DNA from: an uncultured bacterium
Lineage (GTDB): Bacteria; UBP6; UBA1177
NCBI GenBank assembly: GCA_905233945.1
Contig: CAJOFY010000020.1
Coordinates: 11,320-75,319 of the forward strand
DNA: 64,000 nucleotides
Direction of reading: 5' to 3'
Notes under the pieces: model-generated
What the model was told of the DNA's origin: nothing
The model's database searches: none
Seen by the model: only the letters and a program-made list of their open reading frames with translations
Shown: piece after piece, positions 38,739-64,000 of the stretch
Layout: every line of letters begins with the position of its first letter
How positions within the stretch are numbered: position 1 is the first letter of the stretch
Position numbers and translations under genes: made by a program

Positions 38739-40022
38739 TTAAAAACTGTATGAATAGCCAATGTTAGCAAAAACTGTCGTATATTTAGCCTTGAACGGGT
38801 AGTTCGTAGCGCCGTTGTTTACGTCAGGATCCCCCGGACGTTCCGTGAATCCCTCGTAGTTGCCGTTGTCGAACTCGGGAGCGTTTGTTCTGACACCGAG
38901 AGCGAACACAAAGCCTTTTACAGAATAGGACGCCGTTACGCCGAACGTGAAAAGGTAGTACCATTCGGAATCTTCGACCGAACCGTAGAAACCGTCGTAA
39001 TAGTAGTCTTTCACATTGAGTTTGTAATCAGAGCCGAAACTGTATCCGCCGGAAACTTTGAATCCGAAACCTTTGTAAGCTATGCCGATACCGAGAACAA
39101 GACCTATGTCGTGGTTCTGGAGATAGCCCAGCGGTTCGTTGGAGTACGGATCCCATGCCGCATCGTATTCAGCGAATGTTTTTGCGTAGTTAAAGCCGAA
39201 TGAAATACCAAGGTTGACTTCTTTCGGAAGCTTGAAGTTCTTTGCAAGGCTTAAATCAACGCCGAGAATCGTTCTGATCTCGTAAACATCCCAGAGTTCC
39301 TTTGAAGTGAAAGGAATCGAAACGCCGATTCCGATTGAACCCATAACGCCGGCAAAAGCCTCGAAACCTTTGGAAAGGTGAATGTTGAACGGTGTGCCGT
39401 CAAATTTGGAATAGTTGAGATCTGAAGAAGATTCCAGACCGGCTTCGGTTGCGACTGCTTCCGACATTCCGTAGCGGTATAATTCCCTCAAGCCGACATC
39501 TACAGAAATGGCGAATGCCAGCGGAAGGTCGTAGTTCGCGAAAACGTTGAGAGTGTAGGCAAAACTCTTTCTTTCTTTCGCAAAACCGTGCGAGAAACCG
39601 TTGTTGATGCCGAGTGTGAAGGTCGACTGGCTTCCCTGTTCTGCCGCTTTGTCCCCGGCAGCAGTCTCCGAGTCGGCGTCCTCAGCCTGTGCTGCGAGTT
39701 CAGCTTCGAGATCCGACGGTTCTTCTTCGCCGGACGGAGCTTCTTCTTTCGCAGGTGCAGCTTCTTCAGCCGGAGCTTCTTCTTTTGCAGGTGCAGCTTC
39801 TTCAGCCGGAGCTGCCTCTGCCGGTTGCTCAGCTGCCGGTGCCTCTTCCTGCTGCGCAGCTTCCGCCGGGGCTTCCTGGGCGGGTTCCGCAGCCGCGCCT
39901 TGTTCCGGTGCGCTTTCGGAAGCCTGAGCTTCCTGTGCGAAAACCGGCAACGCGCAAATCAACAGCAGAGCAAGAAAGTAAAACTTAAAAACTTTCAATG
40001 TCTCCTCCTTTAATATGAGCAA
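38739..40022 (-). CDS. Outer-membrane beta-barrel protein with Ala/Pro/Glu-rich periodic linker
   Basis: Signal peptide ending VFAQEA; (EEAPA/AAPAKEEAPS) repeats; C-terminal alternating-hydrophobic strands ending in aromatic ...IGYSYSF. Confidence 0.55.
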   Translation of the reverse strand: MLILKEETLKVFKFYFLALLLICALPVFAQEAQASESAPEQGAAAEPAQEAPAEAAQQEEAPAAEQPAEAAPAEEAAPAKEEAPAEEAAPAKEEAPSGEEEPSDLEAELAAQAEDADSETAAGDKAAEQGSQSTFTLGINNGFSHGFAKERKSFAYTLNVFANYDLPLAFAISVDVGLRELYRYGMSEAVATEAGLESSSDLNYSKFDGTPFNIHLSKGFEAFAGVMGSIGIGVSIPFTSKELWDVYEIRTILGVDLSLAKNFKLPKEVNLGISFGFNYAKTFAEYDAAWDPYSNEPLGYLQNHDIGLVLGIGIAYKGFGFKVSGGYSFGSDYKLNVKDYYYDGFYGSVEDSEWYYLFTFGVTASYSVKGFVFALGVRTNAPEFDNGNYEGFTERPGDPDVNNGATNYPFKAKYTTVFANIGYSYSF

Positions 40023-46500: not shown

Positions 46501-46522
46501 CACTCTGACGGAGTAGGTTTCT

Positions 46523-48367: not shown

Positions 48368-48395
48368 TTTTTATTCTGCGCTGCCTCGGCAGTTT
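48368..48395 (+). terminator. Putative intrinsic terminator after the 5'-nucleotidase gene
   Basis: Short GC hairpin (CTGCC..GGCAG) followed by TTTTTTG, plus T6GCCGC-A8 palindrome. Confidence 0.35.
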
Positions 48396-48483: not shown

Positions 48484-48969
48484 ATGGCAGGCATTGGAAA
48501 AGACTGGGCTGTTAGAGGTAAAACTGCAGTCGGGGTCGAAAACAGAATCTATTTTTTGGGTGAAATTTTTTGGACTGAGCGTGAGCCGTGGAAAACGACA
48601 TGTTACGGTAGAAATCCGAACAAGCCTCTCAGGGCGGCCATGGTGGCAGTCAAAAGTTCGAATTTCGGTAGAGTTACGATGATTCCAGGATCTTCGCAGT
48701 TTTCCGAGGGAGAGTGGAAATTCACACCTGAGGAGATATTGAACAACACTTCGCAGAAAGGGATTGTAGGAACCTACGACCTGGATTATATCAGAGGAAT
48801 AGACAGGTGGTTTATCGAAGGCGATTACAACTATACCAACAAAAGCGAAAACTGGAAATCTGTTGTGAAGGACAAAAATCCGGGTTTTATCGGTACCATC
48901 AGCACGAAAGATAAACAAAGACTTGCTGATATGGTTGTGAAATATATGAAAAAGGGAGAGACAAAATGA
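48484..48969 (+). CDS. Uncharacterised protein A (first gene of the cas-linked operon)
   Basis: 161 aa; GGAGGTG RBS; no recognisable domain; stop overlaps next start (ATGA). Confidence 0.5.
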   Translation: MAGIGKDWAVRGKTAVGVENRIYFLGEIFWTEREPWKTTCYGRNPNKPLRAAMVAVKSSNFGRVTMIPGSSQFSEGEWKFTPEEILNNTSQKGIVGTYDLDYIRGIDRWFIEGDYNYTNKSENWKSVVKDKNPGFIGTISTKDKQRLADMVVKYMKKGETK

Positions 48970-50063
48970 ATATGTGGGATTTTATTTTAAAGCTCCGGAA
49001 TAAGGAATGTCCTGACGATATGAATGAAATGCTGAACTTTTGGACGGAAGCACTCTGCAAGGACAAGAACATCCGCGGATGGTTCCGCAATGCAGTTCAA
49101 TTAAAAGAGGATTATGTCAGGGCAGCTGTAATCGATGTTATGATATCGGCAGGGAAAAAAGAGGACGAGAATGAAAAAAACAAGGACCGTTTTAGATCGT
49201 TCATAGAACAACATATTGATACAGAAGATGAGGCGGCGCGGGAAGAGAAAATAAAAAGCGATTTTTATAAAGCGGTCTACAACAAGGTTTGGGGGATGGT
49301 ATTTGTAAGAAAAAAGGGTGATCCGAGTGAAGAATCAGAAGAATCAGAAAAACAATGTGAATATAAAGAGCCGGCCTTGAATGCAGTCTCTATAGATTAC
49401 ACTCCTGACGAGAATGAAAAAAATATGGAACAGAAACACAAAGAACTTCAAGAGATGGGTTTTGAGGATAAATTCTCCTGCGATCAGATTATGGAGCTTG
49501 TTGACACGGAAATCTTTGATAAAGTTGTGGATTTTATTGAGAAAAAAGACGCATGGGGGCATTATTCCAAGTTTAAGGATAAAAAATTCCCCATTTATTT
49601 TCACAATCCCAAGTTTGTGGACATCAAAACATGCAATGACATTGACAAGCTGTCGTGGACGAAAAATGTCATGAAAAATCTTTGTCTGGATGACGAAGGA
49701 AAATATGCCAAGGATTTCATTCTTTTTATGCCGTGGGAAAAATATCCTGTAAAAAGCGGAGGGAAATATACATCGGAAGAATATATAGAGTATATGAAAT
49801 CCCAATATATAAAATCCCGTATAGAAGAAAAATTTGAAGAGCTGAATCTGAACGATTCAACGATAAGCGATCATCTAAGAGGGGAACAAGGTGTGGAAAA
49901 AGAGTTCCACCGCCTTCTTGACGAGAAAAAGCTGACAAGCAAAGATATTCATGCTTATTGCTATAAAGAGTTTGAAGATATAATCAGGGAAAATTTTAAG
50001 GAAAGGATGCCTGATATAATTGATTTGGAAGATTTGGAAGAAGATTCGGAATTTTCCGATTAG
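48966..50063 (+). CDS. Uncharacterised protein B (cas-linked), acidic C-terminal tail
   Basis: 365 aa; Lys/Glu-rich, ends EDLEEDSEFSD; translationally coupled to gene A. Confidence 0.5.
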   Translation: MNMWDFILKLRNKECPDDMNEMLNFWTEALCKDKNIRGWFRNAVQLKEDYVRAAVIDVMISAGKKEDENEKNKDRFRSFIEQHIDTEDEAAREEKIKSDFYKAVYNKVWGMVFVRKKGDPSEESEESEKQCEYKEPALNAVSIDYTPDENEKNMEQKHKELQEMGFEDKFSCDQIMELVDTEIFDKVVDFIEKKDAWGHYSKFKDKKFPIYFHNPKFVDIKTCNDIDKLSWTKNVMKNLCLDDEGKYAKDFILFMPWEKYPVKSGGKYTSEEYIEYMKSQYIKSRIEEKFEELNLNDSTISDHLRGEQGVEKEFHRLLDEKKLTSKDIHAYCYKEFEDIIRENFKERMPDIIDLEDLEEDSEFSD

Positions 50064-50116
50064 TTCCACTTTAGGGAAATGTAGAGATGATATTTTTGTG
50101 CTGTTGGAGATAAATA

Positions 50117-51289
50117 ATGAACAAATTCGCAAACAAAGAAAGAATCAAAAAAATTGCTGAAACTTATGCAAGAGAAATGTATCTGTGGGGCGATCCTTTT
50201 GAGGCGCCCAGTGTTCCGCCGGAAGATGTTATCAGGAAATTCATGAAGAACCCGGAAGAGCTGGAACCTGATCTTGTCCGCCAGATAGAGACTGATATAA
50301 ACTGCGGAGCCGCTGTTAAAAAACTTGAAATTTGTGATGCTGATCCGGCACTCGAAGAAAATATTCAGATCTCCGGAGAGGAAATACGCAAGGCGCTTGA
50401 ATCGATGAAACATCCTGAAACTAAAATGGATTTTCCTTGCAAGGGCGGTGTTTTCTATACAAAAAGCAAACTCAAGGTGTTTGATGATGCAAAAGGAAAA
50501 AACTATAACATTTATACTTTCCTTCCTCAGGCTGTTCTGCTTCTTAGTGACGAAAAAAGAAAATCGTGCGGAACGAGACTCTTCAGGTGCGCAGTTGTAA
50601 CACCCGATTTCGCGGGTGGAGCCGTTGACGGTCAGGATATGGACCTTGGAAACGGCTGGATTCTCCACAAATGGCTGTGTTTTCCTGTAAGTTTCGAGCA
50701 GCTTGACTGTGAAAGAAAAATGGCTGATGTAGAAAACATTGATAAAATCGCCGAAGAGGTCAACAACTATTTCTTTTCTGAACACGAAATGACGTGCTAC
50801 GGCAGGAAAGAACAGAGACTCTCGGCGATGTCGGATTATGTTCCGGCTATGGCTGATGCCGATGTGGCAAGAGCTGAATGGCAGGCGGAACACTCCGTAT
50901 CTTTCGACACTATACAGGCTTATACAAAAGAATCTTTCAGGAAAGCTGCTGATACCGACGAGGATGTCAGCCGACTTGTTGTCAGAAGAGGTGAAAACGC
51001 CGTTGCGAAATCTTTTGAAGCGGAACTTGATGTAATAATTGATATCAATGCCGACAACTGTGATAGAATTGTAAAAGAGAAGGCATTTCCGACATGGACT
51101 ATTGATAAAGATGCAAATATTCCGGATGGAACTGTTTTCCTGCTGCGGGATGTCAGAAACGGAAACACGATCGGTTCAGGAGAAATAAGTCGCGGCGTGG
51201 CATGGCTCGAGCGTCTTGTTCCGGAGGCTGTTACGATTTCCGTAACTGACGCATCACAAGTAGTTCTGGAGGTTTATCTTCCATGTTAG
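50117..51289 (+). CDS. Uncharacterised protein C (cas-linked)
   Basis: 390 aa; no recognisable motif; overlaps gene D start by 7 nt. Confidence 0.5.
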   Translation: MNKFANKERIKKIAETYAREMYLWGDPFEAPSVPPEDVIRKFMKNPEELEPDLVRQIETDINCGAAVKKLEICDADPALEENIQISGEEIRKALESMKHPETKMDFPCKGGVFYTKSKLKVFDDAKGKNYNIYTFLPQAVLLLSDEKRKSCGTRLFRCAVVTPDFAGGAVDGQDMDLGNGWILHKWLCFPVSFEQLDCERKMADVENIDKIAEEVNNYFFSEHEMTCYGRKEQRLSAMSDYVPAMADADVARAEWQAEHSVSFDTIQAYTKESFRKAADTDEDVSRLVVRRGENAVAKSFEAELDVIIDINADNCDRIVKEKAFPTWTIDKDANIPDGTVFLLRDVRNGNTIGSGEISRGVAWLERLVPEAVTISVTDASQVVLEVYLPC

Positions 51290-52641
51290 TAAAAATTTTT
51301 GATTCCGCTCATACTGGAATGAGCCGAAGTCAGTTTCTTCGTTTTTTTTTCAAAGATTTCCCTTATGAAGCAAAAGACTTTGAATCGACAAATTTCGAAG
51401 AATCACCCGAAAATCCTGAATTGCGCGACTTGTTTACAGATCTGGGTTCGCTTTCGCTTCTGATGATCAAAAACAAAGAAGAAAACGATGAAATCCGGAA
51501 ATTGAAGGCGTTTTTCAAAGATAAAATCCCTTTTCAGCCGTGTAATAAAACCAAATTTGAAGATCTAGACAAGCGGAGATTCTCCGCAGTGTTTTTCCCG
51601 ATAGAGACAGGAGCTGATCCTGAATGGGGAATGTGCGTCAGAAGTGATGCAGGCGACACTTTCTTCTTTGATTCAAAAGACTGCGAATGGAAATCCGGAT
51701 GGAGCGGTGACGGAGATTCATATAAACTCGCTGCGGCACTTGCGAAAGAACTTCTTGAATCGGATTTGCCGGAACGGGATGAACATATTTTCAAAGCTGC
51801 GCAGGACTGGATTGTCACAGGCAGCGTAGATGGAAAAGGGAAAGTCGGCAAAGTAGCTCTCGGCGGCAAACTAAGGCTCAGAACAAAAAAGAGTTTTATG
51901 ATTCCATTGGAAAATATTGCCACCCTTTCGGATGAAGAGAGAAAAAGGGATTTGTTTTCAGTAGATGAGATCTCGACGGCGATGAATCTGATTACAAGAA
52001 ACGGTGTGAAACCGCTTGTCGAGCGCGAATTTCCTCTGGAAGTTGATGAACTTCACATTCTTGTCGGTGCGGCTCTTGCTCCGCAGGTAGCTTCCGTCGT
52101 GCTTCTGAATGCAAAAAAAATTATACTCTGGCACTCGGAAAATTCCAAAGTAAATGCAGATGAAATGTGTGAAATCGCCCGAAAATTAAAGGGAATTGTC
52201 CCTGAAAAGCGCAAAATGTCGTCTTCATCCCTGCTTGATGCCGAAAAGGAACTCAAAAAGTATTTCGCTTACGGCAAGATTTCGCCTCAGGCACGGATTT
52301 TTTTCAATTTCACGAGCGGAAACAGACTCATGGCGATGGCAGTCCAGTCAGTGGCAAGACTTTATCACAATGTAGAGATGATTTACCGCGATATAGATGA
52401 AACCGACAAAAAAAAGGAGGCTGAAGAGAGCCGTCTTATGACATTCAATCTTCTGCAGTACAGCGAATTCCCCCCTCTTTACGGTAAAATATACGGAACT
52501 GTAAGGAGCGGACTTGATGTCAATTTTCTGCGGAACGGCAAAAGAGAAACTGCAAAGAACGTCAATTTTCAGCAGAACGAAGAAACTGAATATAAGGACG
52601 GAGAGGATTTTTTAAATAAACTGATAAAAAAGGAGAAGTGA
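51283..52641 (+). CDS. Uncharacterised protein D (cas-linked), possible Rossmann-like sensor domain in C-terminal half
   Basis: 452 aa; stop abuts the cas10 start (52641/52642); C-terminal region (ELHILVGAALAPQVASVVLLNAKKIILWHS) has a beta-alpha Rossmann-like pattern, but assignment to the CRISPR-associated Rossmann fold (CARF) is unproven. Confidence 0.45.
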   Translation: MLVKIFDSAHTGMSRSQFLRFFFKDFPYEAKDFESTNFEESPENPELRDLFTDLGSLSLLMIKNKEENDEIRKLKAFFKDKIPFQPCNKTKFEDLDKRRFSAVFFPIETGADPEWGMCVRSDAGDTFFFDSKDCEWKSGWSGDGDSYKLAAALAKELLESDLPERDEHIFKAAQDWIVTGSVDGKGKVGKVALGGKLRLRTKKSFMIPLENIATLSDEERKRDLFSVDEISTAMNLITRNGVKPLVEREFPLEVDELHILVGAALAPQVASVVLLNAKKIILWHSENSKVNADEMCEIARKLKGIVPEKRKMSSSSLLDAEKELKKYFAYGKISPQARIFFNFTSGNRLMAMAVQSVARLYHNVEMIYRDIDETDKKKEAEESRLMTFNLLQYSEFPPLYGKIYGTVRSGLDVNFLRNGKRETAKNVNFQQNEETEYKDGEDFLNKLIKKEK

Positions 52642-54279
52642 ATGGCAACTTACGTTTACGGCGGAAAATTCCAGGGAATCCAAAGCTACATTTTTTCAAC
52701 GAACAGACTGAGGGAGAACATCGGTGCAAGCGAACTGCTGAACGAAATATGTACCGAAGATTTTCTTAAAGAAAAACTTACTTCTTTCGAAATCAAAGGT
52801 GATTACGAAATTGTGCAGAAAGCGGCAAGTACAATTAAAATCGTTTTCCGAGAACAAGACGATGCTAAAAAAATGAAACAGGAATTTCCCAAGGTCGCAC
52901 GTGACTTGGTTCCTGGAATAGAGTTTTCACAGACTTATATTGAGCAGAAAAGTGATGATCTGAAAAACATAGACAAAGAAGTCAGAGATAGTTTAGAAGA
53001 GGAACTGAATAAGGAAAAAAACCGTCCTGCAACACTTTATTATCCTAATCTGATGATCGTAAAAAGGGATAACCGCACAGGACTGCCGGTTCGCGCTGAA
53101 AAAAAATACAGAATAAATTATATCGATGATGATGGAAAACAAAAAGAGAAACCTGCAGATGAATCGACATACAAAAAAGATTCCAAAGCAAATGATGCTC
53201 ACCCGAAACTTGTGGAAAAACTTATCGGAGAAGGACGGGGCCAACTGATGCCTGTTGAAATTGAACGAATTTCAAATTCAAACAGTTTTATTGCTGTTGT
53301 TCACGCTGACGGAAACGGACTCGGTCAGATAATAAGCAATTTGGGAAAGAATGTTAATTCAAAATTGTTTTCCGAGACACTTGACGACTGTCTCGTCGGG
53401 GCAGCCGGAGATGCCTTCAGAGAAATAATAGAGAATAAATACAATGGTGACAAAAAAAATTATTATCCGTTCCGTCCGATGGTGCTTGGCGGAGACGACT
53501 TTAATTTTATCTGCAAGGCGGATGATGCCGTTGAGTTCACAAAGAAATTTATAACGCTGGTCGAGAAATATACCGAAACAAAGTTTGAACCTCTTTTTGG
53601 AGATACAAACGAACAAAATAAAAAAGTGTCAAAAATGACGGTTTGTGCCGGAATAGCTTTTGTTAAAGAGAATTATCCGCTGCATTTTGCCTACGAACTG
53701 GCGGAATCGCTGTGTGATCTTGCAAAGGACAAAGCAAAGGATCTGCGAAAGCAGGAAGTGGAAAGATTAAAAAAAGAAAATGCTGAAGCAAATAAAGATG
53801 CGATAAAGAAGGTTCTGATTCCTTCCTGTATCGCTTTCAGAAAGGAATTGGGCAGTTTTGCTGAGGATTTCGATAATATAAAAGAAAAGGACAAGAAATT
53901 TATTTTCGGACCTTATGCGGTTTCCGACAGCGGATACAAACTTCCTCAGATTGACAGTCTGGTTAAAGTTGCGGAAGTTTTGAAAGACAACAATCCTTTC
54001 AAATCGTTCCTCAGAAACTGGATGAGCGATGAACTGGTCAATCCGCATTCGGCTCAGCTTTTAAAAAAACGTTTCATGCAGGTCGCAAATGAGAAAAACG
54101 GTGGAGCATACGCAAAATTCTGCAATGCGTTGAATGAACTTGTTCCACAGGCAAACGCAGAAGACCTTACGCTTGAAAAGGACGGTGTTTCACCTGTTCT
54201 CGATATTCTGACTCTTATTTCCATTGCGGAAAAAACAGACCCGGACAGTAAGAAAGGAGGAGAAAATGATAACAATTAA
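52642..54279 (+). CDS. cas10: Cas10 (type III large subunit) lacking HD domain, cyclase GGDD motif intact
   Basis: N-terminus starts directly with palm-1 signature (YVYGGKFQGIQSYIFS..LRENIGAS, compare Cas10 GDxSGIQxFIF..LRGRS); palm-2 DxD (AVVHADGNGLG) and RPMVLGGDDFNF; no HD motif, no treble-clef CxxC pairs. Confidence 0.7.
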   Translation: MATYVYGGKFQGIQSYIFSTNRLRENIGASELLNEICTEDFLKEKLTSFEIKGDYEIVQKAASTIKIVFREQDDAKKMKQEFPKVARDLVPGIEFSQTYIEQKSDDLKNIDKEVRDSLEEELNKEKNRPATLYYPNLMIVKRDNRTGLPVRAEKKYRINYIDDDGKQKEKPADESTYKKDSKANDAHPKLVEKLIGEGRGQLMPVEIERISNSNSFIAVVHADGNGLGQIISNLGKNVNSKLFSETLDDCLVGAAGDAFREIIENKYNGDKKNYYPFRPMVLGGDDFNFICKADDAVEFTKKFITLVEKYTETKFEPLFGDTNEQNKKVSKMTVCAGIAFVKENYPLHFAYELAESLCDLAKDKAKDLRKQEVERLKKENAEANKDAIKKVLIPSCIAFRKELGSFAEDFDNIKEKDKKFIFGPYAVSDSGYKLPQIDSLVKVAEVLKDNNPFKSFLRNWMSDELVNPHSAQLLKKRFMQVANEKNGGAYAKFCNALNELVPQANAEDLTLEKDGVSPVLDILTLISIAEKTDPDSKKGGENDNN

Positions 54280-54799
54280 CTATAAAATCGAATTTTTTAC
54301 CGACTGGAACTGTTCCAGCGGTCTCACAGGAAACGCCGATATCGATATCGCGGCTCTGCGTGACAATGACGGATTTCCGTATGTTCCCGGCAAAACGGTA
54401 AAAGGACTTTTGAGAGATGCGGCAAGAAATCTGGGTGAAACCAGTGAAGAAAAAATTTTCGGTTCTCCAAACGAGAAAGTTGACGAAACCGAAATAGAAA
54501 AAGCATACTTCTCAAATGCCGAACTTAATGAAAATGTCCGGAAAGCATTGAAATACGACAATGAGAAAAAAGCGTGCCTTTTCCGCGAAATTGCATCTAC
54601 CGCCATTGGTTCTGACGGGGTGGCAAAAGACAATTCGCTCAGAAAAGTCGAAGTTGCTATTCCTCTTACACTTTTCGGCACAATCGAATGTGAGGAAATG
54701 CACAAAGATACGATTTCGAGATGCATGAAGTTCATAAAAAGGCTCGGTATGGAGAGAAACCGCGGTCTTGGAAGATGTGAAATGTCGGAGGTGAAATAA
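54266..54799 (+). CDS. cas7: Minimal Cas7 (Csm3-like RAMP)
   Basis: AGGAGG RBS; RAMP motifs SSGLTGNADIDI...DGFPYVPGKTVKGLLR and C-terminal Gly-rich loop GMERNRGLGRCE. Confidence 0.65.
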   Translation: MITINYKIEFFTDWNCSSGLTGNADIDIAALRDNDGFPYVPGKTVKGLLRDAARNLGETSEEKIFGSPNEKVDETEIEKAYFSNAELNENVRKALKYDNEKKACLFREIASTAIGSDGVAKDNSLRKVEVAIPLTLFGTIECEEMHKDTISRCMKFIKRLGMERNRGLGRCEMSEVK

Positions 54800-56331
54800 T
54801 GAGATACTGTTACAAAGTCACGCTTCTTGCCGATGTCGTAATGAGTTCGCTCAGCTCGACCGAAGTATCGGAATCGCTTGATTATCTCAGCGGTTCTGCA
54901 TTTATGGGGATCGCGGCAAATTATCTTTTCACAGAAAACAGAAAAAACGGAAAAAATTATGATGTTTTTGACGCTGTTTTTTCAGGGAAAATCCGTTTTC
55001 TGGATGCCCATCCGCTGATTGACGGTAAAAGAAGTTTCAAGATCCCGCTCTGCCTCCACAAACCGAAAGTAAAGGGCGCTGCGAAAAAATACCGTTTTGA
55101 AGGAAAACCGCTGGAGGAAGGTGAAAACAAGATCCAGATGAAGCAGGTACGCAAGGGTTTCTTCATCGCAGACGGCGGAACCTGGACAAAAGTCGAACCG
55201 GAACACCAGTACACGATGAAATCTTCATACGACAGCGAAACAAGACGTGCCCAGGACAACGCTCTTTTCGGCTACGACGCTCTTGTAAAAGGAAGCGAGT
55301 GGGTTTTTGTCATGGAATTCGACGATGAAAAGAAGGATATCGCCGAAGAACTTAATAAATTTTTCATTTCAAAAAACCACAGGATCGGAAAATCGAAGAC
55401 CAGCCAGTACGGAAATGTGGAAATCAAAAGAGACGATTCTCTTCTTTCTGACTGCGGGACCTATGAGGCGACAGAAAACAAATACAAAGTCTATGCCGAT
55501 TCGCGCCTCTGCTTCTTTGATGAAAACGGTCAGCCGACATTCCAGCCGACACCTGAGCAGCTCGGTTTCAAAGACGGAGAAATCCTCTGGAACGAAAGTT
55601 TTGTTAGAAAATATGTCTTTACTCCGAGAAACGCGACAAGAAACGCTTACGACGGCGATATCGCCTGCATAGACAAAGGAAGCGTGTTTACTGTCAAGTC
55701 CGAGACAGGTCACAACGGAAGAAAAGTTGTCGGTGAATATCAGTCGATAGGTCTCGGGCAGATAATCGTAAATCCGGAATTTCTGAAAGAACATCCGGAG
55801 CATTTGAAAGATGTTGATGAAAACGATACTAAACCGGCAGTTCAGTGCAACGGTCCTCTTGTTGCATGGCTTGAAAGTAAGCAGAAAGAGAAAGATGTGG
55901 AGCAGAAAATCGCTGAGCAGGTAAATGAGGCGCGTAAGCTTATTACATGGCTTGAAAGTAAGCAGAAAGAGAAAGATGTGGAGCAGAAAATCGCTGAAAA
56001 GGTGACTGCTGCTTTTGCAAGTATGCCGGTCGGCATTTCTCCGAGCCAGTGGGGAGTTTTGAGAGCAAAAGCAAGAATGGCACTTGTCGAACATACAGAT
56101 TGGGCAGACTTCGAATATGCCATTTTCTTGGCTGGAGATGCATATCTTAAAAAAGAGCGCCTGAATTCAAAATGGGGCACGGATAAAGTTAAAAAACTCC
56201 ACAGTGTTTGTAAGAATGTTTGCGGTAATTCAACTTGGAACGATATTCAGAAACTCCGCTTTTTTGAGCTTCTGTGTGCGGCAGCAGCAAAAGAAGCAGC
56301 CAAAAAAACAAAAGATAATGGAGGCAAATAA
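54799..56331 (+). CDS. cas5: Cas5-group RAMP (Csm4/Csx10-like) with C-terminal extension containing a 27-aa tandem repeat
   Basis: N-terminal YLSGSAFMGIAANYL (RAMP G-loop variant), Csm4-like HRIGKSKTSQYGNVEI; coupled start (ATAATGA) with upstream gene. Confidence 0.55.
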   Translation: MRYCYKVTLLADVVMSSLSSTEVSESLDYLSGSAFMGIAANYLFTENRKNGKNYDVFDAVFSGKIRFLDAHPLIDGKRSFKIPLCLHKPKVKGAAKKYRFEGKPLEEGENKIQMKQVRKGFFIADGGTWTKVEPEHQYTMKSSYDSETRRAQDNALFGYDALVKGSEWVFVMEFDDEKKDIAEELNKFFISKNHRIGKSKTSQYGNVEIKRDDSLLSDCGTYEATENKYKVYADSRLCFFDENGQPTFQPTPEQLGFKDGEILWNESFVRKYVFTPRNATRNAYDGDIACIDKGSVFTVKSETGHNGRKVVGEYQSIGLGQIIVNPEFLKEHPEHLKDVDENDTKPAVQCNGPLVAWLESKQKEKDVEQKIAEQVNEARKLITWLESKQKEKDVEQKIAEKVTAAFASMPVGISPSQWGVLRAKARMALVEHTDWADFEYAIFLAGDAYLKKERLNSKWGTDKVKKLHSVCKNVCGNSTWNDIQKLRFFELLCAAAAKEAAKKTKDNGGK

Positions 56332-57800
56332 TGAAGAAATATCTGGCAAGAATCATATTCGAGGCTGAAACACCGCTCCATGTCGGCAGCGGCAGTTCAG
56401 ACCTTACCCTTGATGCGCCCATAAACTGCGATGCGAACGGACTTCCTCAGATAAACGGATCAAGCCTCGCAGGAATTCTGAGAAGTTCTTTCAGTGACGA
56501 CGAAAAAATCAGAGAAAAAATTTTCGGTTTTCAGAAAAAAGCAGCAGAAGAAGAAGGAAAAGGTGAAGGTTCAAGGCTTGTTGTCAGCAATGCACACCTG
56601 ATTTATGAAGGCGGCAGAGTTGTAGAAGGCCTGATAACCAACGATGAAATAACAAAAAGCAAATATCTCAAAGCGATGCAGGCTTACGCTCTTCCTCTGC
56701 GCGATCACTGCAGGATAAATGAAAAAGGTGCTGCAAAAGATCAGGGAAAATTCGACAACTGCGTCCTTCCGAAAGGTGTCAGATTTGTATGCGAGCTTGA
56801 ACTGACTGAAAATGACAAAGATCTTTCCGCTGACTGGGAAAATCTGCTTCAAGTTGTTTCAAGCGATACTTTCAGGGTCGGCGGCAAAGTTAGAAGCGGT
56901 CTCGGAAGACTGAAAGTTCATGAATGTTTCGAAAAACCTTTTGATTTTCAAAATCCTGATGCTGTCAAAGAATATCTTGAACACTCTTCCTCATTCAATA
57001 AAAAAACTGCATGGAAAACTGAACTCAAATCAGGCGGAAAGTCAGATAAATATTTGTGCTACACTCTCGAGATCCAGCCGGAGGATTTCTTCACTTTCGG
57101 CAGCGGATACGGAGATGAAGAAGTCGATATGACTCCGAAAAAAGAGATCGTTGTTAAGTGGGACGGTGACACTCCTGACATCAGTGAAGCAAAAATCCTT
57201 ATTCCTGCTTCTTCGATCAAGGGGGCGATTTCACACAGGACCGCTTTCTACTACAACAAACTGACAGAAAATTATGCTGAAAAATTTAAAGGTGTTAAAG
57301 AAGAAGATAAGCCGGTCGGTCCAAAAAACGAAGCTGTAAGAGCTCTTTTCGGTTATGACAAGCAAAAAGAGGCTGAATTTAAAAAGCCGGAAGTGCCTGC
57401 CGATAAGCAGGAGAAGGCTGAATCTGAAAAGCAGGAAACTCCCGCAGGCAAAGTGTTTTTTGACGACATGATAATTGAAGAAAATGCCGATGAGAAAGTT
57501 TTCAACCATGTTTCGATAGACAGATTCACAGGCGGTGCGATGAGCGGAGCTCTTTTTGACGAGAAAGTCTGCGGAACCAGCGTCGAAGTTGAACCTGATA
57601 AGTTCAAACCGCTGGAGATCGAACCTCTGAAGATTTATGTCAAAAAATCGGCTTTCGAAGGAAACGTCAATGTCAGAGAAGCTTTCGAAAATGCTCTTGA
57701 CGACATCTGCACCGGAATGCTTCCTCTCGGCGGCAGCACGATGCGCGGACACGGCTGTTTTACAGGAACTTTGAAAAAACCGGAGGATAACAATGAGTGA
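56331..57800 (+). CDS. cas7: Fused double-Cas7 RAMP (two Csm3/Csm5-like domains in one polypeptide)
   Basis: Domain 1: ETPLHVGSGSS...GLPQINGSSLAGILRS with G-loop VRSGLGRLKV; domain 2: ILIPASSIKGAISHRTAF with terminal G-loop LPLGGSTMRGHGCF. Confidence 0.6.
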   Translation: MKKYLARIIFEAETPLHVGSGSSDLTLDAPINCDANGLPQINGSSLAGILRSSFSDDEKIREKIFGFQKKAAEEEGKGEGSRLVVSNAHLIYEGGRVVEGLITNDEITKSKYLKAMQAYALPLRDHCRINEKGAAKDQGKFDNCVLPKGVRFVCELELTENDKDLSADWENLLQVVSSDTFRVGGKVRSGLGRLKVHECFEKPFDFQNPDAVKEYLEHSSSFNKKTAWKTELKSGGKSDKYLCYTLEIQPEDFFTFGSGYGDEEVDMTPKKEIVVKWDGDTPDISEAKILIPASSIKGAISHRTAFYYNKLTENYAEKFKGVKEEDKPVGPKNEAVRALFGYDKQKEAEFKKPEVPADKQEKAESEKQETPAGKVFFDDMIIEENADEKVFNHVSIDRFTGGAMSGALFDEKVCGTSVEVEPDKFKPLEIEPLKIYVKKSAFEGNVNVREAFENALDDICTGMLPLGGSTMRGHGCFTGTLKKPEDNNE

Positions 57801-58191
57801 AAATATTATAAAAAGAGAAATGGACCGCCAGCAGCTTAAAGAATTATGGAATGAACTGAAAGCTGAAGGGATGGACTGCGGCTACTACTGGCTTGACAAT
57901 GATGATCACCCGGAACTTTTTGAAAACGGAAATATGCCCGATTTTCCCGGCAACAGCCGTAACTTCATCGTCGAAAGCTGCTGGTACAAAAAGAACGAAA
58001 AGAGTGTCGAGATCCGTTTTGCAGGCGGAAAATACATCGTCACGACAGTTGATCTGACGAAAGAAAAACTTGAAATACCAAAAGAATACTTTGTCTCGAC
58101 GCAGAAAGAAGCGACAATCCTTTTCTCGGATATCATCAACGAAGAAGACGGTTCGATAAAAAAGATTGTTTTTGTTGGTTTCGGAAATTAG
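57793..58191 (+). CDS. Small uncharacterised cas-embedded protein (132 aa)
   Basis: Overlaps upstream stop; mixed alpha/beta, not obviously Cas11. Confidence 0.45.
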   Translation: MSENIIKREMDRQQLKELWNELKAEGMDCGYYWLDNDDHPELFENGNMPDFPGNSRNFIVESCWYKKNEKSVEIRFAGGKYIVTTVDLTKEKLEIPKEYFVSTQKEATILFSDIINEEDGSIKKIVFVGFGN

Positions 58192-58200
58192 GAGGCAGAA

Positions 58201-60537
58201 ATGGCATACGATAATGATCAGAACAGGAAAGGTTCAAATAGTTTCGGGAAAAATCCCACTATAAAATCACCGTATAATTTTGTACCTCTTTCAGAGACAG
58301 TCGTTTGCCCTGATTGGGCGGATGAAGTCAGCCATGACATTCCGTTTGAAGACGGCATCAGCGGAAAAATCGACCTCACAGTCACGCTTCAGAGCGATAC
58401 TTACATCAGAAACGGCGGGAATTGGAGTGAAGCAGATAAAAAAGACGACAAATCTAAATGCCAGAAATTCTTCACTGCAGCAGTAAACGGCGAAAAGAAA
58501 TACATTATTCCCGGAACATCGTTCAAAGGAATGATCCGCAATGTCCTTGAAATCGCAAGTTTCGGAAAGATGCAGAAAGTCAATGACGACAAGTATTCGA
58601 TAAGGGATCTGCATAACACAAGATATACCGGTGAACTGACTGAAAAAAGAGGCGGGATTATTTATCCTAAAACAAAGGCAGGATGGCTGTGTCTCGATGA
58701 AGGTTCCTATGAAGATGAAGGCGGAAGAAAGTGGCAGATAATTCCTTGTGATTATGCGAGGATAGAGCAGGAAGAACTTAGTCCTGATTTTGGCAGAAGA
58801 GGGACTAAAACACTCAAGGAAACTACTGAATTTAAGTATGAAAAATTCGGAGAAGACAAGCTCGAAGTAACTTTTCAACTCGATGAAAAAACAGAACATG
58901 ATGAGCATTCATGCGGAACAATATACTATAAAAAAGTAAAAAAAGACACTCTCAACAAGCCCGAGTCCGAGATGAAAGGAATTCTTGTTTTTACCGGCCA
59001 GCCAAGCAATCGAATTACTCAGGCAGAACGTAACAGCAATGAAAAACTAAAAAAACAACATCCTAAACACATGGAATTTGTTTTCTACGAATATGAAACT
59101 TCGAAAAAACCTCGATCTATTACAGCATCACAAAAAGAAAATTTCATATTTATAAATTCTGACAGCAATAAAAAACCTCTTCCGGAATGGGAATACTGGA
59201 CAAGAAATGAAGAACCGAAGGATAAAAATCTGAAAGAGAAAAAAGGTGACGGAGAATTGAAAGAGGGAAGAAAAGTCCCCGTTTTTTATCTCGAAGACAG
59301 CGAGGGAAATATAAAATCTTTCGGTCTTGCAATGATGTACAGACTGCCTTACGACAACTCTGTCGTGCAGACGATAGAACATACTTCAAGAGATCATTTT
59401 TCTTTTGATGCTTATAAAAAATACGAAAACAAGAACAAAGATAAAGACGATAAAAATAAAGACAAAGATGAATGGAAACCAGACTTGTCAGATCTCATAT
59501 TCGGTTACTCGAATAAGGAAAAATCCCTTAAAGGCAGAGTCCAGTTTTCGCATTTTATCAGTAAAGATAAGGTCGGAGAAATTGAGACTGTCGGTGAGAC
59601 GAAAACAACCGTTCTCGGAGGACCTAAAGCAAGTTATTATCCTAATTATCTGGAACAGCCGGATCTTAAAGCAGGATATAAACTGTTCTGGGATAAAGAT
59701 GCTAAAATCAGAGGTTGGAAGCGCTATCCTGCGCAGGGAATTGAAGCTTCATACCCGCCACCTCCTGAGATAAACGGAAAAGTGAATGAAGATGTTGCGA
59801 CAAAACTTATTCCGCTGAAAGCAGGTGCAGAATTTAAAGGTTCTGTCCGTTTCTTCAATCTTAAACATGAAGAACTCGGTGCTCTGCTCTGGGCTATTAC
59901 CTGGGATAAAGACAAGTACTGCCAGCACAATATCGGTATGGGAAAACCGCTCGGTCTCGGCAGAATCTCGATAGATATTACAGCACAAGTGATTACGGAA
60001 ACTTCAGAAACAATGGATGATTTCCTTGCAGAATTCAAGAAGTATATGAACGGTAAAGTTCCTAATTGGGAGAAGTCCGAACAGATAACAGAACTCAAGC
60101 GAATGGCGGACATCAGGTTCTGGAGTGACGAAGTAACGACATCTTATCCTATTCTTGATATGAACTGCAAACCTACCATCAACGAGTTTAATGATGCGAA
60201 AACAGCAATGGAAAAACTCGAGCGTTATTCTGAAATTGCAGACCGGCACGATGTCAAGGTAGAAACTCTGGAAGACAAGCTGAAAAAAGATGAAAAAAAG
60301 GCAAAAATTGCAGCAGCTTCCGAAGGTTTGGCTCCTGAACTCCAGAAAGTATTTGAATCACTGCGCAATTTAACGAAAGGCAAATTAAACAATAAGCTTA
60401 AAAACAATGAACTCACTGATAAAGGTAACGAACTCACCGAGAAAGAAGTCGCAGTGCTTAAAATTCAACCTCAGGATGCCTGGGAAAAATGGCAGTGGGA
60501 AGTTATAGATTCTCGTAGAAAAAATTGGGACAAATAA
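58201..60537 (+). CDS. cas7: Large Cas7-family RAMP (Csm5/Cmr6-like) with insertions and alpha-helical C-terminal tail (possible fused small subunit)
   Basis: GGAGG RBS; SPYNFVPL N-terminal motif, YIIPGTSFKGMIRNVLE, distal G-loop GMGKPLGLGRISI; final 180 aa Lys/Glu-rich helical. Confidence 0.6.
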   Translation: MAYDNDQNRKGSNSFGKNPTIKSPYNFVPLSETVVCPDWADEVSHDIPFEDGISGKIDLTVTLQSDTYIRNGGNWSEADKKDDKSKCQKFFTAAVNGEKKYIIPGTSFKGMIRNVLEIASFGKMQKVNDDKYSIRDLHNTRYTGELTEKRGGIIYPKTKAGWLCLDEGSYEDEGGRKWQIIPCDYARIEQEELSPDFGRRGTKTLKETTEFKYEKFGEDKLEVTFQLDEKTEHDEHSCGTIYYKKVKKDTLNKPESEMKGILVFTGQPSNRITQAERNSNEKLKKQHPKHMEFVFYEYETSKKPRSITASQKENFIFINSDSNKKPLPEWEYWTRNEEPKDKNLKEKKGDGELKEGRKVPVFYLEDSEGNIKSFGLAMMYRLPYDNSVVQTIEHTSRDHFSFDAYKKYENKNKDKDDKNKDKDEWKPDLSDLIFGYSNKEKSLKGRVQFSHFISKDKVGEIETVGETKTTVLGGPKASYYPNYLEQPDLKAGYKLFWDKDAKIRGWKRYPAQGIEASYPPPPEINGKVNEDVATKLIPLKAGAEFKGSVRFFNLKHEELGALLWAITWDKDKYCQHNIGMGKPLGLGRISIDITAQVITETSETMDDFLAEFKKYMNGKVPNWEKSEQITELKRMADIRFWSDEVTTSYPILDMNCKPTINEFNDAKTAMEKLERYSEIADRHDVKVETLEDKLKKDEKKAKIAAASEGLAPELQKVFESLRNLTKGKLNNKLKNNELTDKGNELTEKEVAVLKIQPQDAWEKWQWEVIDSRRKNWDK

Positions 60538-60539
60538 CT

Positions 60540-62312
60540 ATGACTCCGGCTTTCTATACTCTCAGAACTGCTTATTCCGCGCAGAAAAGAGGCGTGATCC
60601 TTCACGCTGTCCTGCAGGCGATAATGAAAGAGAGCTATATGGATGCTTTCCCCGGCATGGTCTGGAAAAATCTGGCTGTGCCGAACATTTTCTACCATGT
60701 CGAGGGAAGGCGTTTCAGCGATGTTCTGGAGGAAAAGGAGGTCTTTACTGTCTGCTACTTTTTCTGCGGAATTGACGAAGAAACAGTTGCAAAGTTCACC
60801 GATGCTCTGAAAAAGCGGATGGATGTGCCTGAAAACCAGCATTACTACAGGCTGGAAAAGGTGGCTCAGCCGGTTTTGAAAACGCTTGACGATCTTCGCA
60901 GAGAGTATGCCTTCATTCCTGAGAAGGGTGAGATCACGCTTGATCTATTGATGCCGCTTCCTTTCAACTCGGGCAAGGATACGGAAAAAACAGAGATCTC
61001 GAAAGAGCTCTTCAAAAAGCTGCTTTCGGGAAGGATGAAACGCCTTTTCGGCGATGATCTGCAGGGCGGGATCGATACCGATGCTTTCGAGATCACGACA
61101 GATTTAAGGCGCAAAACTCTGTGCACGCACCAAAAGAACGGCGTCTACGGGCAGAGGATACGCGGATGTATCGGCAAAATCACGCTAAAAGGCGATTTTT
61201 CATCTTTCCGTGATCTGCTGATCCTTGCGTGCGAACTGCACCTGGGGCCGGAACTTACGACTTCTCAGGGGTATTTCGTGCCGGAAAGAGGCGGAGAGCC
61301 TTCATCTGCGGATGATGATGAAACAGTGGCCGAACCTTACAAAAAGCCGCTCTACATCACGGCGATGAACTCTTTTCTCGGGGTGAGCGGAGGAACGATC
61401 GAGATTTACAGCGACCGAGAGCTGAAAAATTCATATCCGATGAACAGAATAGGCGAGGTCATCGTTCTGGAAAAGGCGATTTTCAGCACCGATTTTCTGA
61501 CGAAGTGCGCGGAACGCGGTATTCCGGTTTCGATTTCTCTCGGAAAATCGGCTGAATACGGCACGTTCACCAAGCCGGAAAAGAATCGCTACGAAGTTCT
61601 TAAAAGCCATATTCTGAAGTTTTCATCTCTTTCGGAAGAGGAAATCGTCAAAATTTCGAGAGATATAGCCGAAACGAAGACAAGAGCGTTCATAAGCATT
61701 TTCAAAAGAAGGTGGGAAAAAGGAACCGCAAGGATCCTGAAAAAGCTGGAAGCTGCGGCTGATTTGTTCGCAAAGGCTGAAACGATCGATGAAATACGCG
61801 GCTACGAAGGAATATCGAGCAGGCTGATATACGAGAAGATCCAGAATCTGATCCTGAATGAGGATTTCAGGTTCGAGAGGCGCGGCAGATACGAAAAAGA
61901 CTTTATGAACACGACTCTGAATTTCGTATATTCAAAGCTTTATCAAAGGGTCGTGCTTACGCTTAATGCGCTCGGACTGAATCCGTATCTGGGTTTCCTG
62001 CACAGTTCAAACGACCGCTACGAATCGCTTGCCTGTGACATTGAAGAGCTTTTCCGCGCACCGGTTTTCAACGCAGTAATCAATCTGATCAACCTGCAGC
62101 AGCTGAAAGCGTCCGATTTTGTTGAGACTGAAAAAGGAATCATTATCAAGCAAGGGGCGATCCGCACAATACTTGAGGTTTTTGAAAAAGAATTTCAAAA
62201 AATTAACCCGAAAAGCGGAAAAACGCTTGAATATGAGCTTTATAACCAGTGTGTGCTCATCAAAAACTGGGCACTCGGGAAATGTGAACTGAGCTGGTTC
62301 AGGTGGGAATGA
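60540..62312 (+). CDS. cas1: Cas6-Cas1 fusion protein
   Basis: N-terminal 260 aa with Cas6-like G-rich loop (ELHLGPELTTSQGYF); C-terminal Cas1 core (LYITAMNSFLGVSGGTIEIY ... RYESLACDIEELFRAPV). Confidence 0.65.
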   Translation: MTPAFYTLRTAYSAQKRGVILHAVLQAIMKESYMDAFPGMVWKNLAVPNIFYHVEGRRFSDVLEEKEVFTVCYFFCGIDEETVAKFTDALKKRMDVPENQHYYRLEKVAQPVLKTLDDLRREYAFIPEKGEITLDLLMPLPFNSGKDTEKTEISKELFKKLLSGRMKRLFGDDLQGGIDTDAFEITTDLRRKTLCTHQKNGVYGQRIRGCIGKITLKGDFSSFRDLLILACELHLGPELTTSQGYFVPERGGEPSSADDDETVAEPYKKPLYITAMNSFLGVSGGTIEIYSDRELKNSYPMNRIGEVIVLEKAIFSTDFLTKCAERGIPVSISLGKSAEYGTFTKPEKNRYEVLKSHILKFSSLSEEEIVKISRDIAETKTRAFISIFKRRWEKGTARILKKLEAAADLFAKAETIDEIRGYEGISSRLIYEKIQNLILNEDFRFERRGRYEKDFMNTTLNFVYSKLYQRVVLTLNALGLNPYLGFLHSSNDRYESLACDIEELFRAPVFNAVINLINLQQLKASDFVETEKGIIIKQGAIRTILEVFEKEFQKINPKSGKTLEYELYNQCVLIKNWALGKCELSWFRWE

Positions 62313-62596
62313 TGCCGAATACGGGAAATTATGTTTTCGCTTACGACATTTCGCTCACGAAAGAGCGGAACAAAGTTGATAAAGTTTTGAAGGAATACGG
62401 GTTTCGTATCCAGAAAAGTGTTTTTGAATGTGTTCTGACTGAAAATGACCGCGAAAAACTGCTGAACAGGCTGAATGAACTTGGGTTGAACAGCGGTTTC
62501 GTTAAGGTTTACAGGCAGGATTCCTATTTTAAGGCAAAAACTGTGGGACCTGCACCGGAAAAGCAGGATACCGGTTTTGCCTATTTCGCGGCTTAG
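62309..62596 (+). CDS. cas2: Cas2
   Basis: YVFAYDIS...RNKVDKVLKEYGFRIQKSVFEC Cas2 signature; ATGATG start overlapping cas1 stop. Confidence 0.8.
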   Translation: MMPNTGNYVFAYDISLTKERNKVDKVLKEYGFRIQKSVFECVLTENDREKLLNRLNELGLNSGFVKVYRQDSYFKAKTVGPAPEKQDTGFAYFAA

Positions 62597-62958: not shown

Positions 62959-63750
62959 TGTAACGAGTAGCAGAGTAGCTACTCTGGTTGAAACTGTTAG
63001 TGCACTGAATTGTTTTGCCATTTTGTGTAACGAGTAGCAGAGTAGCTACTCTGGTTGAAACAGGTGTCTTTCTGTATCCCCAATCTCACGCTCAAGTAAC
63101 GAGTAGCAGAGTAGCTACTCTGGTTGAAACTGTGTTCATTCTAAGTCTCCAAAATAAAAGTTACTGTAACGAGTAGCAGAGTAGCTACTCTGGTTGAAAC
63201 ATTCACCCATGCCTTACTGTCTCGAATTACTTCAGTAACGAGTAGCAGAGTAGCTACTCTGGTTGAAACTATATCTTCTTTATCTTTTAAAAGATAAAAA
63301 AGGTAACGAGTAGCAGAGTAGCTACTCTGGTTGAAACTCTTTCTCTTCTTCTTTGTCTTCTTTTTCATCAGGTAACGAGTAGCAGAGTAGCTACTCTGGT
63401 TGAAACCTTCTACAAGGCAGAATACCAGAAAATGTCCAAGTAACGAGTAGCAGAGTAGCTACTCTGGTTGAAACCCGTTAAGAAAACGTTTCATAATTTA
63501 CACCTTCGTAACGAGTAGCAGAGTAGCTACTCTGGTTGAAACTAATACTACCTTTTTTCTTTTCTTCTGTTACTTGTAACGAGTAGCAGAGTAGCTACTC
63601 TGGTTGAAACCAGAGTTTCCGCAACATTCTGATGACCCGCTGTAGTAACGAGTAGCAGAGTAGCTACTCTGGTTGAAACATCGTACCAGGCTGATACCTC
63701 TCCGATAATGCCCCTGTAACGAGTAGCAGAGTAGCTACTCTGGTTGAAAC
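62959..63750 (+). CRISPR. CRISPR array 1: 12 copies of 35-nt repeat GTAACGAGTAGCAGAGTAGCTACTCTGGTTGAAAC, spacers 32-36 nt
   Basis: Identical repeats with 67-71 nt period; repeat has internal 7-bp hairpin (GAGTAGC..GCTACTC) and 3' GTTGAAAC handle; AT-rich leader 62716-62958 on cas side. Confidence 0.95.
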
Positions 63751-63789: not shown

Positions 63790-64000
63790 GTTACATGAAG
63801 GCGGAACCTAGGCTCCGGTTGAAACTATGCTTCTTTATCATTCTTAATTTCAGTTATTTGTTACATGAAGGCGGAACCTAGGCTCCGGTTGAAACAGCCA
63901 GTCAGGTTTGATATCATCAGGCAGACTGCGTTACATGAAGGCGGAACCTAGGCTCCGGTTGAAACAAACAGTTGCCGTCGTAAGTCATATCACTGACAAG
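63790..64000 (+). CRISPR. CRISPR array 2 (truncated by window end): at least 3 copies of distinct 36-nt repeat GTTACATGAAGGCGGAACCTAGGCTCCGGTTGAAAC
   Basis: Three identical repeats with 70-nt period starting 39 nt after the last repeat of array 1; shares 5' GTWAC and 3' CYGGTTGAAAC with array-1 repeat. Confidence 0.85.

Follow-up and report, generated by a model that had tools for sequence, protein, structure and literature searches.

Gene content of the locus

The window, by which we mean the whole 64,000-nucleotide stretch of DNA that was analyzed, carries an operon in which a cas10 gene is preceded by genes for a Lon-CARF protein and the proteins p390, p365 and p161, and followed by genes for the remaining subunits of a type III effector, by cas1 and cas2, and by two CRISPR arrays (Table 1). 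A terminator-like hairpin lies upstream of p161 at 48380-48393, and GGAG-type ribosome-binding sites precede most genes of the operon; a promoter scan of the operon gave counts not above those of shuffles.

Table 1. Coordinates of the features in the window (nucleotides) and of the Cas10 domains (amino acid residues); loci with an L number are related loci
Feature	Position	Strand	Description and support
p161	48484..48969	+	First gene of the operon; small protein; homologue in L003
p365	48966..50063	+	Fast-evolving cassette protein; weak homologues in L003, L083, L084
p390	50117..51289	+	Small family; homologues upstream of Lon-CARF in L003, L083, L084
Lon-CARF	51283..52641	+	Lon-protease-like domain, ~95-240; C-terminal Can2/Card1-type CARF, ~250-410
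cas10	52642..54279	+	Subtype III-D type, 545 aa; ATG start, ORF list and uninterrupted translation
Cas10 Palm1	residues ~1-105
Cas10 linker	residues ~106-215		Without zinc finger
Cas10 Palm2			HADGN 221-225 and GGDD 283-286
Cas10 C-terminal domain	residues ~437-538		Helical; no HD domain in the protein
Small Cas7	54266..54799	+	177 aa; PADLOC Cas7_IIId 6e-61; gene call in L001
csx10 (Cas5 of III-D)	54799..56331	+	510 aa; PADLOC Cas5_IIId 2.6e-109
Cas7-2x	56331..57800	+	Two fused Cas7 domains, 489 aa; PADLOC Cas7_IIId 1.2e-142
csx19	57793..58191	+	132 aa; TIGR04423 3.7e-12, 46.6 bits against a cutoff of 40; PADLOC Csx19
Cas7 with large insertion	58201..60537	+	TIGR03986 family, 778 aa; TIGR03986 1.3e-91
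cas1	60525..62312	+	N-terminal extension of ~275 aa; Pfam Cas_Cas1 1.2e-53 at 276-555
cas2	62303..62596	+	Pfam CRISPR_Cas2 2e-14
CRISPR array 1	62960..63750	+	12 copies of the 35-nt repeat GTAACGAGTAGCAGAGTAGCTACTCTGGTTGAAAC
CRISPR array 2	63790..63965	+	At least 3 copies of a different 36-nt repeat, GTTACATGAAGGCGGAACCTAGGCTCCGGTTGAAAC, heading to the window end

The presence of csx10, csx19 and a TIGR03986 Cas7 assigns the locus to subtype III-D, whose markers (csx10, csx19 and a Cas10 that lacks the HD domain) are all found here. The Cas7-insertion protein scores 308.8 bits against TIGR03986, above the cutoff, and matches PADLOC Cas7_IIId at 1.8e-146; Cas7-2x is hit by Pfam RAMPs in two stretches and has the Cas7-2x chain 8s9t_D as its best PDB match; and Csx10 finds its best PDB match in the Cas5 part of the Cas7-Cas5-Cas11 protein 8s9t_A, with an alignment confined to residues 254-462 of that fusion. 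Judged by these matches the module is III-Dv-like, but with Cas7 and Csx10 encoded by separate genes rather than as one Cas7-Cas5-Cas11 fusion; fused forms occur in some relatives (L020, L038, L045 and L062). The mechanical ORF of the small Cas7 begins at a TTG at 54224; the start chosen in Table 1 is an ATG. The N-terminal extension of Cas1 is possibly Cas6-like, with a weak match to Pfam CRISPR_Cas6 (E=0.0034, under the cutoff); a fused Cas6b was considered and rejected, as an HMM made from the Cas6b proteins of the family (54 sequences) does not match the extension.

Identity of the Cas10 subunit

A preliminary description of the locus had read this ORF as a compact Cas10 and named alignment to Cas10 profiles as a check. 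PADLOC Cas10d matches the ORF at E=4.8e-98 over profile positions 2-439 of 441, and in an alignment with 128 relatives the palm residues are not degenerate. Generic libraries detect palm 2 only (Pfam Cas10-Cmr2_palm2, E=2e-12); the NCBIfam Cmr2 and Csm1 models score far under their cutoffs, and no NCBIfam model reaches its cutoff. Relatives of the protein are labeled "hypothetical protein" in public records; a look-up of database names for the exact proteins of the window returned none.

An AlphaFold2 model based on 48 homologues (pLDDT 84.6, pTM 0.86) places beta-alpha-beta palms at residues 3-102 and 216-342, followed by a bundle of helices at 437-538. The 50 top matches listed by Foldseek for this model are all Cas10, Csm1 or Cmr2 chains, and chain C of 8S9T ranks first, aligned over the full length with a TM score of 0.73. 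The protein thus combines two palm domains, a helical Cas11-like C-terminal domain, GGDD and the aspartate of the first palm-2 strand (D223), and lacks two features of canonical III-A/III-B Cas10, the N-terminal HD nuclease domain and the four-cysteine zinc finger between the palms. On the strength of the profile matches and the predicted fold, we identify it as a genuine Cas10 large subunit of a subtype III-D effector.

Its closest solved relative is the III-Dv Cas10 of Synechocystis sp. PCC 6803 (8S9T/U/V/X chain C; Schwartz et al. 2024, PMC11026444), a full-length homologue found by phmmer at 7e-32 and by the family profile at E=8e-66. The two proteins have identical HADGNGLGQ and LGGDD motifs and no functional HD domain, and both have the palm-1 motif close to the N-terminus, at residue 26 in Synechocystis and at residue 11 here; the two loci share the partners Cas7-2x, Csx19 and Cas7-insertion. 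In other respects they differ: the structure-based identity is only about 22%, and the cyanobacterial protein has a palm-1 insertion of about 35 residues, unlike the present one. Cas7, Cas5 and Cas11 form one protein in Synechocystis, whereas Cas7 (177 aa) and Csx10 (510 aa) come from two genes here, and the ancillary genes are different.

Absence of the HD domain and the zinc finger

The palm-1 signature, QGIQSYIF, spans Q11 to F18 and is preceded by only 10 residues; the first element of the AlphaFold2 model is a beta strand at residue 3, and no N-terminal domain comes before palm 1. The claim that the ORF begins directly at palm 1 is thereby borne out. The 545 residues include four histidines in total, and a search for an HD dipeptide in them found none. 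The start codon is credible and not a mis-call, since a Shine-Dalgarno sequence of its own, AAGGAG, lies 6 nt 5' of the ATG, and the TGA of the preceding gene directly adjoins it. Across the family, too, the protein starts 10-16 residues ahead of the GIQ motif, with a median of 12 residues in a 128-sequence alignment of relatives at about 30-35% identity, so that the HD domain is, as had been proposed, absent rather than misannotated.

An HD domain could nevertheless be hidden by a mis-called start, by a split upstream ORF or by readthrough of a TGA from an in-frame upstream gene, and the Lon-CARF ORF does lie in the same frame as cas10 with a single TGA between them. We regard this as extremely improbable. 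The upstream protein is a Lon-protease-like domain joined to a CARF domain, not an HD domain, and no HD dipeptide was found in it or in the three ORFs further upstream (p390, p365 and p161), which rules out the split HD gene that the preliminary description had singled out as worth looking for. The strong AAGGAG ahead of the cas10 ATG speaks against readthrough, as does the use of TGA to end three other genes of the operon, each of which is followed by a gene with its own Shine-Dalgarno sequence; in relatives, moreover, other genes stand between Lon-CARF and cas10, or Lon-CARF is missing altogether. Readthrough or fusion of Lon-CARF and cas10 is ruled out on these grounds, and the start shared by the whole Cas10 family leaves a mis-call equally implausible.

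The absence of the zinc finger is likewise confirmed: Cas10 contains no CxxC and, between residues 38 and 249, the zinc-finger region between the palms, no cysteine, and 123 of the 128 relatives have no CxxC there. The expectation that palm 2 keeps both D-x-D and GGDD holds for the GGDD, at residues 283-286, and fails for the D-x-D, which is not present; the first strand of palm 2 reads H221-A-D223-G224-N225-G-L-G228, an HADGN motif that supplies D223.

A common architecture in subtype III-D

The combination of a missing HD domain with an intact cyclase had been called unusual, which is true only against III-A and III-B. That is the wrong comparison for a III-D locus, and the claim of rarity therefore fails. 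Of 1113 type III loci, 39% have a recognizable HD domain, as against 3% of those of subtype III-D, and a cyclase occurs in 92% (Hoikkala et al. 2024); since 61% of the loci have no HD domain in Cas10, the domain is not defining for Cas10 as a whole. Most III-D Cas10s are without HD, and III-Dv keeps GGDD (Schwartz et al. 2024, PMC11026444).

The relatives of the present protein agree with this. A protein search returned 1679 of them, and the 120 listed are all annotated with a single domain and are nearly all about 470-550 aa long. In a scan of species-representative genomes (one per species), at least 569 loci with such Cas10s were found, mostly in Bacteroidales; Tannerella forsythia ATCC 43037 is one of the cultured strains among the hosts. 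The 82 loci that were examined comprise 80 genomic ones and two metagenomic copies of the window's own sequence; every one of them encodes a Cas10 of 473-601 aa with the same motifs, and the order Cas10-Cas7-Csx10-Cas7x2-(Csx19)-Cas7ins is almost universal among them. A Cas10 that has neither HD domain nor zinc finger and retains the cyclase site is the normal, documented state of subtype III-D.

The likely messenger

With the HD domain absent and the cyclase residues intact, signaling without DNase activity of Cas10 is a sensible prediction, and to this extent the preliminary description stands; it went too far in taking cyclic oligoadenylate (cOA) as the sole possible product. HD-less Cas10s have been shown between 2023 and 2026 to make SAM-AMP, first in the III-B system of B. 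fragilis, so this alternative had to be weighed. In III-D2, the only variant of III-D with an assayed product, the complex of Gammaproteobacteria bacterium HyVt-522 yields SAM-AMP and SAM-AMP2 for a CorA effector, not cOA (Mitsuda et al. 2026, PMC13294483).

The III-D2 structure, in which Mg2+ is bound by the side chain of D286 and the main chain of G287 (Mitsuda et al. 2026, PMC13294483), allows the active site to be compared residue by residue. By spacing, D286/G287 correspond to D223/G224 here, F306/D307 to F243/S244, and G346/D347/E348 to G284/D285/D286, the GGDE of III-D2 being matched by GGDD. All metal and donor residues of III-D2 have counterparts, so the cyclase metal-binding and donor sites of the present Cas10 are complete by this correspondence, and their residues are invariant or nearly so in the family. 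H221, D223, G224, N225, G228, S244, G284 and D286 are invariant in the 128-sequence alignment, D285 is kept in 127 of 128, and G12, I13, Q14 and I17 of the palm-1 motif are invariant or nearly so. These data bear on the notion that the cyclase is vestigial, with Cas10 a purely structural subunit and defense left to RNA cleavage by Cas7, a scheme that has been suggested for III-C/III-F-like systems. Schwartz et al. (2024, PMC11026444) left cOA synthesis by the III-Dv lineage to future work, which gives the notion some room; we nonetheless consider it very unlikely, because invariance of the active site among such diverged relatives argues for purifying selection on it, and because CARF effectors are consistently linked to the family.

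The SAM-AMP reading, under which Cas10 would be a SAM-AMP (or SAM-AMP2) synthase like its HD-less III-D2 and B. fragilis III-B counterparts rather than a cOA cyclase, draws on resemblances of architecture and of one residue. The III-D2 protein has the same HD-less Palm1-linker-Palm2-CTD layout, and after III-Dv the next-best Foldseek matches are the SAM-AMP-making Cas10 chains of B. fragilis, 9lq5-9lq8. In the literature, the acceptor is determined by D253/K379 in L. lactis Csm1, a cOA producer, by E8/Q186 in III-D2 and by D70/E151 in B. fragilis; the position of D253 is occupied here by K9, not by aspartate. The same position, which is also that of E8 in III-D2, weighs against the reading as well: in the family it is Ala in 80, Ser in 33, Asn in 8, Lys in 3 and Arg in 3 of 128 sequences, and never acidic, whereas the SAM binders have E8 or D70. 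It thus fits neither the SAM binders nor the III-A state, and by this alignment the acceptor pocket is not a canonical III-A one. Profile alignments of Cas10 to PDB chains covered palm 2 only; as to a second acceptor-pocket determinant, equivalent to K379 of L. lactis or Q186 of III-D2, our guess would be the conserved R/K126-N127-K/R128 stretch.

Gene context points away from SAM-AMP more clearly. Searches of the operon with Pfam, NCBIfam and PADLOC found no CorA, NrN, DEDD or SAM-lyase gene. The recurrent neighbors in 80 related loci are Cas6b (54), Csx1 CARF-HEPN (44), a Can2/Card1-like CARF nuclease (31) and CARF-TM (5), and no CorA cluster is among them. The sensor co-transcribed with cas10 is a CARF of the Can2/Card1 type, a class known for cOA binding. 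Finally, the locus resembles III-Dv rather than III-D2, having a CARF effector and III-Dv-like subunits where III-D2 has its CorA and its Cas7x3 and Cas7-5 fusions. We therefore judge SAM-AMP synthesis by this Cas10 to be unlikely and favor cOA signaling as its best-supported output, given the co-transcribed CARF effector, the Csx1 and Can2 neighbors of the family and the lack of CorA. Because the CARF domain is of the Can2/Card1 type, the cOA species is probably cA4.

The Lon-CARF cassette

The C-terminal half of the Lon-CARF protein is a CARF domain by PADLOC CARF4 (1.5e-9) and by comparison of the family profile with Card1 (3e-6). The family comprises 339 clusters (50% identity) at E<=1e-3 and 177 at E<=1e-30, and most of the best hits listed match over both domains. 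Even at identities as low as 21%, S146, G180, K196 and, in the CARF loop, T344 and N347 do not vary. In alignment, K196 falls on the GGVTQK lysine of A. fulgidus Lon, the catalytic lysine of that enzyme. Lon-CARF is the predicted receptor of the Cas10 product and, by analogy with CalpL, presumably a cOA-activated, substrate-specific protease.

In CalpL/CalpT/CalpS (7QDA), a Lon fold carries a Ser-Lys dyad, as Lon-CARF also does; the sensor of CalpL is a SAVED domain, in contrast to the single, Can2/Card1-like CARF domain of Lon-CARF. CARF-Lon fusions figure in Steens et al. (2022, citing Makarova 2020) as a bioinformatic prediction only, and no experimental characterization of such fusions was found in the literature searched.

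The genes ahead of Lon-CARF travel with it. p390 lies directly upstream of it in all loci inspected (the window, L003, L083 and L084; E<=1e-72), which makes its product a candidate partner or substrate of the protease, and a faster-evolving homologue of p365 precedes p390 in L003, L083 and L084. A homologue of p161 is evident in L003 (E about 1e-53), whereas L085 offers at best a remote counterpart, seen only by alignment, at 20% identity. Searches of Pfam and the PDB brought up no relatives of p390, p365 or p161, and the three show no detectable similarity to CalpT or CalpS. Two assignments were tried and dropped: p161 as a MazF/PemK-like toxin, for which neither Pfam, searched to E=10, nor a profile search of the PDB gave support, and p390 and p365 as the anti-sigma or sigma analogues of CalpT/CalpS, for which there were no Pfam or PDB matches.

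In L083, housekeeping flanks 73-90% identical to those of the window stand in the same order and the fused Cas1 is 81% identical, and a type III-B Cmr module takes the place of the III-D module behind the cassette. Joined to III-D here and to III-B there, the cassette is portable from one kind of effector module to another, and this favors a generic messenger. We tentatively propose, as a possibility somewhat short of an even chance, that p161, p365, p390 and Lon-CARF form a portable cassette serving III-D or III-B modules at the same chromosomal site, in which cOA bound by a single CARF domain would prompt the Ser-Lys protease to cleave one of the orphan proteins and release an effector.

A model for the III-D locus

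We posit that the complex of Cas10, Csx10, Cas7, Cas7-2x, Csx19 and Cas7-insertion, loaded with crRNA, binds a complementary foreign transcript, which its Cas7 subunits would cut. Cas10, allosterically switched on by the bound RNA target, would then polymerize ATP into a cyclic oligoadenylate, most likely cA4, and would itself cleave no DNA. The messenger would be bound by the CARF domain of Lon-CARF, the protease encoded in the same transcript, and the Ser146-Lys196 dyad of this protease would then cleave a specific protein, plausibly p161, p365 or p390; the best-placed candidate is p390, by analogy with the cleavage of CalpT by CalpL. Taken as a whole, the route from an HD-less III-D Cas10 through cOA (most likely cA4) and the CARF domain of Lon-CARF to specific proteolysis seems to us likely on the genes and motifs present. 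Cyclase-only Cas10s without HD are known from other subtypes too: the III-B system VmeCmr of Vibrio metoecus (PMC8682760) follows the same functional logic, with no HD nuclease and defense via a cOA-activated effector; it is of the Cmr subtype and uses NucC and cA3.

Implications

Taken alone, the Cas10 of this locus is one more HD-less, cyclase-competent III-D Cas10, in a group with hundreds of known genomic members and a solved structure. With no NCBIfam model at cutoff and relatives recorded as hypothetical proteins, such loci can readily escape notice or be taken for oddities. The SAM-AMP results for III-D2 make the messenger of III-Dv worth measuring, and the CARF effector at this locus predicts cOA. 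The Lon-CARF cassette is more interesting than the Cas10 and is a lead worth following: if characterized, it would be the first Lon protease pathway gated by a CARF rather than a SAVED domain.

Exchange of the interference module

L083, a locus from a related organism, keeps the flanking genes of the window in the same order and at 73-90% amino acid identity (L083 1-17284 compared with window 38739-62312), encodes a fused Cas1 that is 81% identical to its window counterpart, and carries a Lon-CARF cassette at 41-43% identity. Because the flanks, Cas1, and the cassette are common to both loci, but what comes after the cassette is a type III-B Cmr module in L083 and a III-D module in the window, the interference module has been swapped at an orthologous site. 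Relative to L083, the window has extra OPT-transporter and 5'-nucleotidase genes between the flank and the cassette. The closest relatives, L003 and L084, contain an additional gene of ~525 aa between Lon-CARF and cas10, with a precomputed Pfam assignment to MJ1674_2nd and a weak Apea-like HEPN match (7e-5), whereas in the window Lon-CARF directly adjoins cas10.

The window Cas1 has an extra N-terminal ~275 aa. A stand-alone Cas6 is absent from the window's CRISPR locus, although Cas6b is encoded in 54 of the 80 related loci. Compared with these Cas6b proteins, the extension shows no match, and its residues 141-243 give a weak, below-threshold hit to Pfam CRISPR_Cas6 (E=0.0034). This Cas1 is possibly a Cas6-Cas1 fusion. 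The two CRISPR arrays are directly adjacent and have different repeats, which share only 5' GT(A/T)AC and 3' C(T/C)GGTTGAAAC. Unrelated to the CRISPR locus, imperfect 18-36-nt tandem repeats elsewhere in the window encode a low-complexity, Ala/Glu/Pro-rich stretch at the N-terminus of a protein predicted to be of the outer-membrane type.

Coordinates of the features discussed
Feature	Locus	Position	Strand	Details
ORF with tandem repeats	window	38739-40022	-	
Tandem repeats	window	39720-39865		
OPT-transporter and 5'-nucleotidase genes	window	44482-48313		
Lon-CARF cassette	window	48484-52641		4 genes
cas10	window	52642-54279	+	545 aa
Cas10 residue 9	window	52666-52668	+	Lys
cas1	window	60525-62312		
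CRISPR array 1	window	62960-63750		35-nt repeat GTAACGAGTAGCAGAGTAGCTACTCTGGTTGAAAC, 12 copies
CRISPR array 2	window	63790-63965		36-nt repeat GTTACATGAAGGCGGAACCTAGGCTCCGGTTGAAAC, at least 3 copies; continues toward window end
Additional gene	L003	8436-9977		
Additional gene	L084	9405-10982		

Cas10 and the Lon-CARF cassette

The window Cas10 falls into an annotation gap: its best NCBIfam scores, to Cmr2 (30.5 bits; cutoff, 79.4) and Csm1 (24 bits; cutoff, 170), fall far short of the cutoffs, relatives 54% identical to it are labelled 'hypothetical protein' in NCBI records, and its exact sequence bears a name in no source. At the acceptor-pocket position, residue 9, most of the III-D Cas10 family has Ala/Ser and the window protein has Lys, in contrast to Asp in Csm1 that makes cyclic oligoadenylate (cOA) and Glu/Asp in Cas10s that make the alternative messenger SAM-AMP. 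Judged by these residues, the pocket in this III-D clade appears to fit neither characterised state. A stretch conserved in the family, R/K126-N127-K/R128, may be a candidate source of phosphate contacts.

Upstream of cas10 and co-transcribed with it, the cassette encodes p161, p365, and p390, for which no homologues were detectable in Pfam or the PDB, and a Lon-protease+CARF fusion whose Lon dyad (Ser146/Lys196) and CARF loop are invariant across its family, which comprises at least 177 clusters. Together, the four proteins likely constitute a cOA-gated protease pathway.
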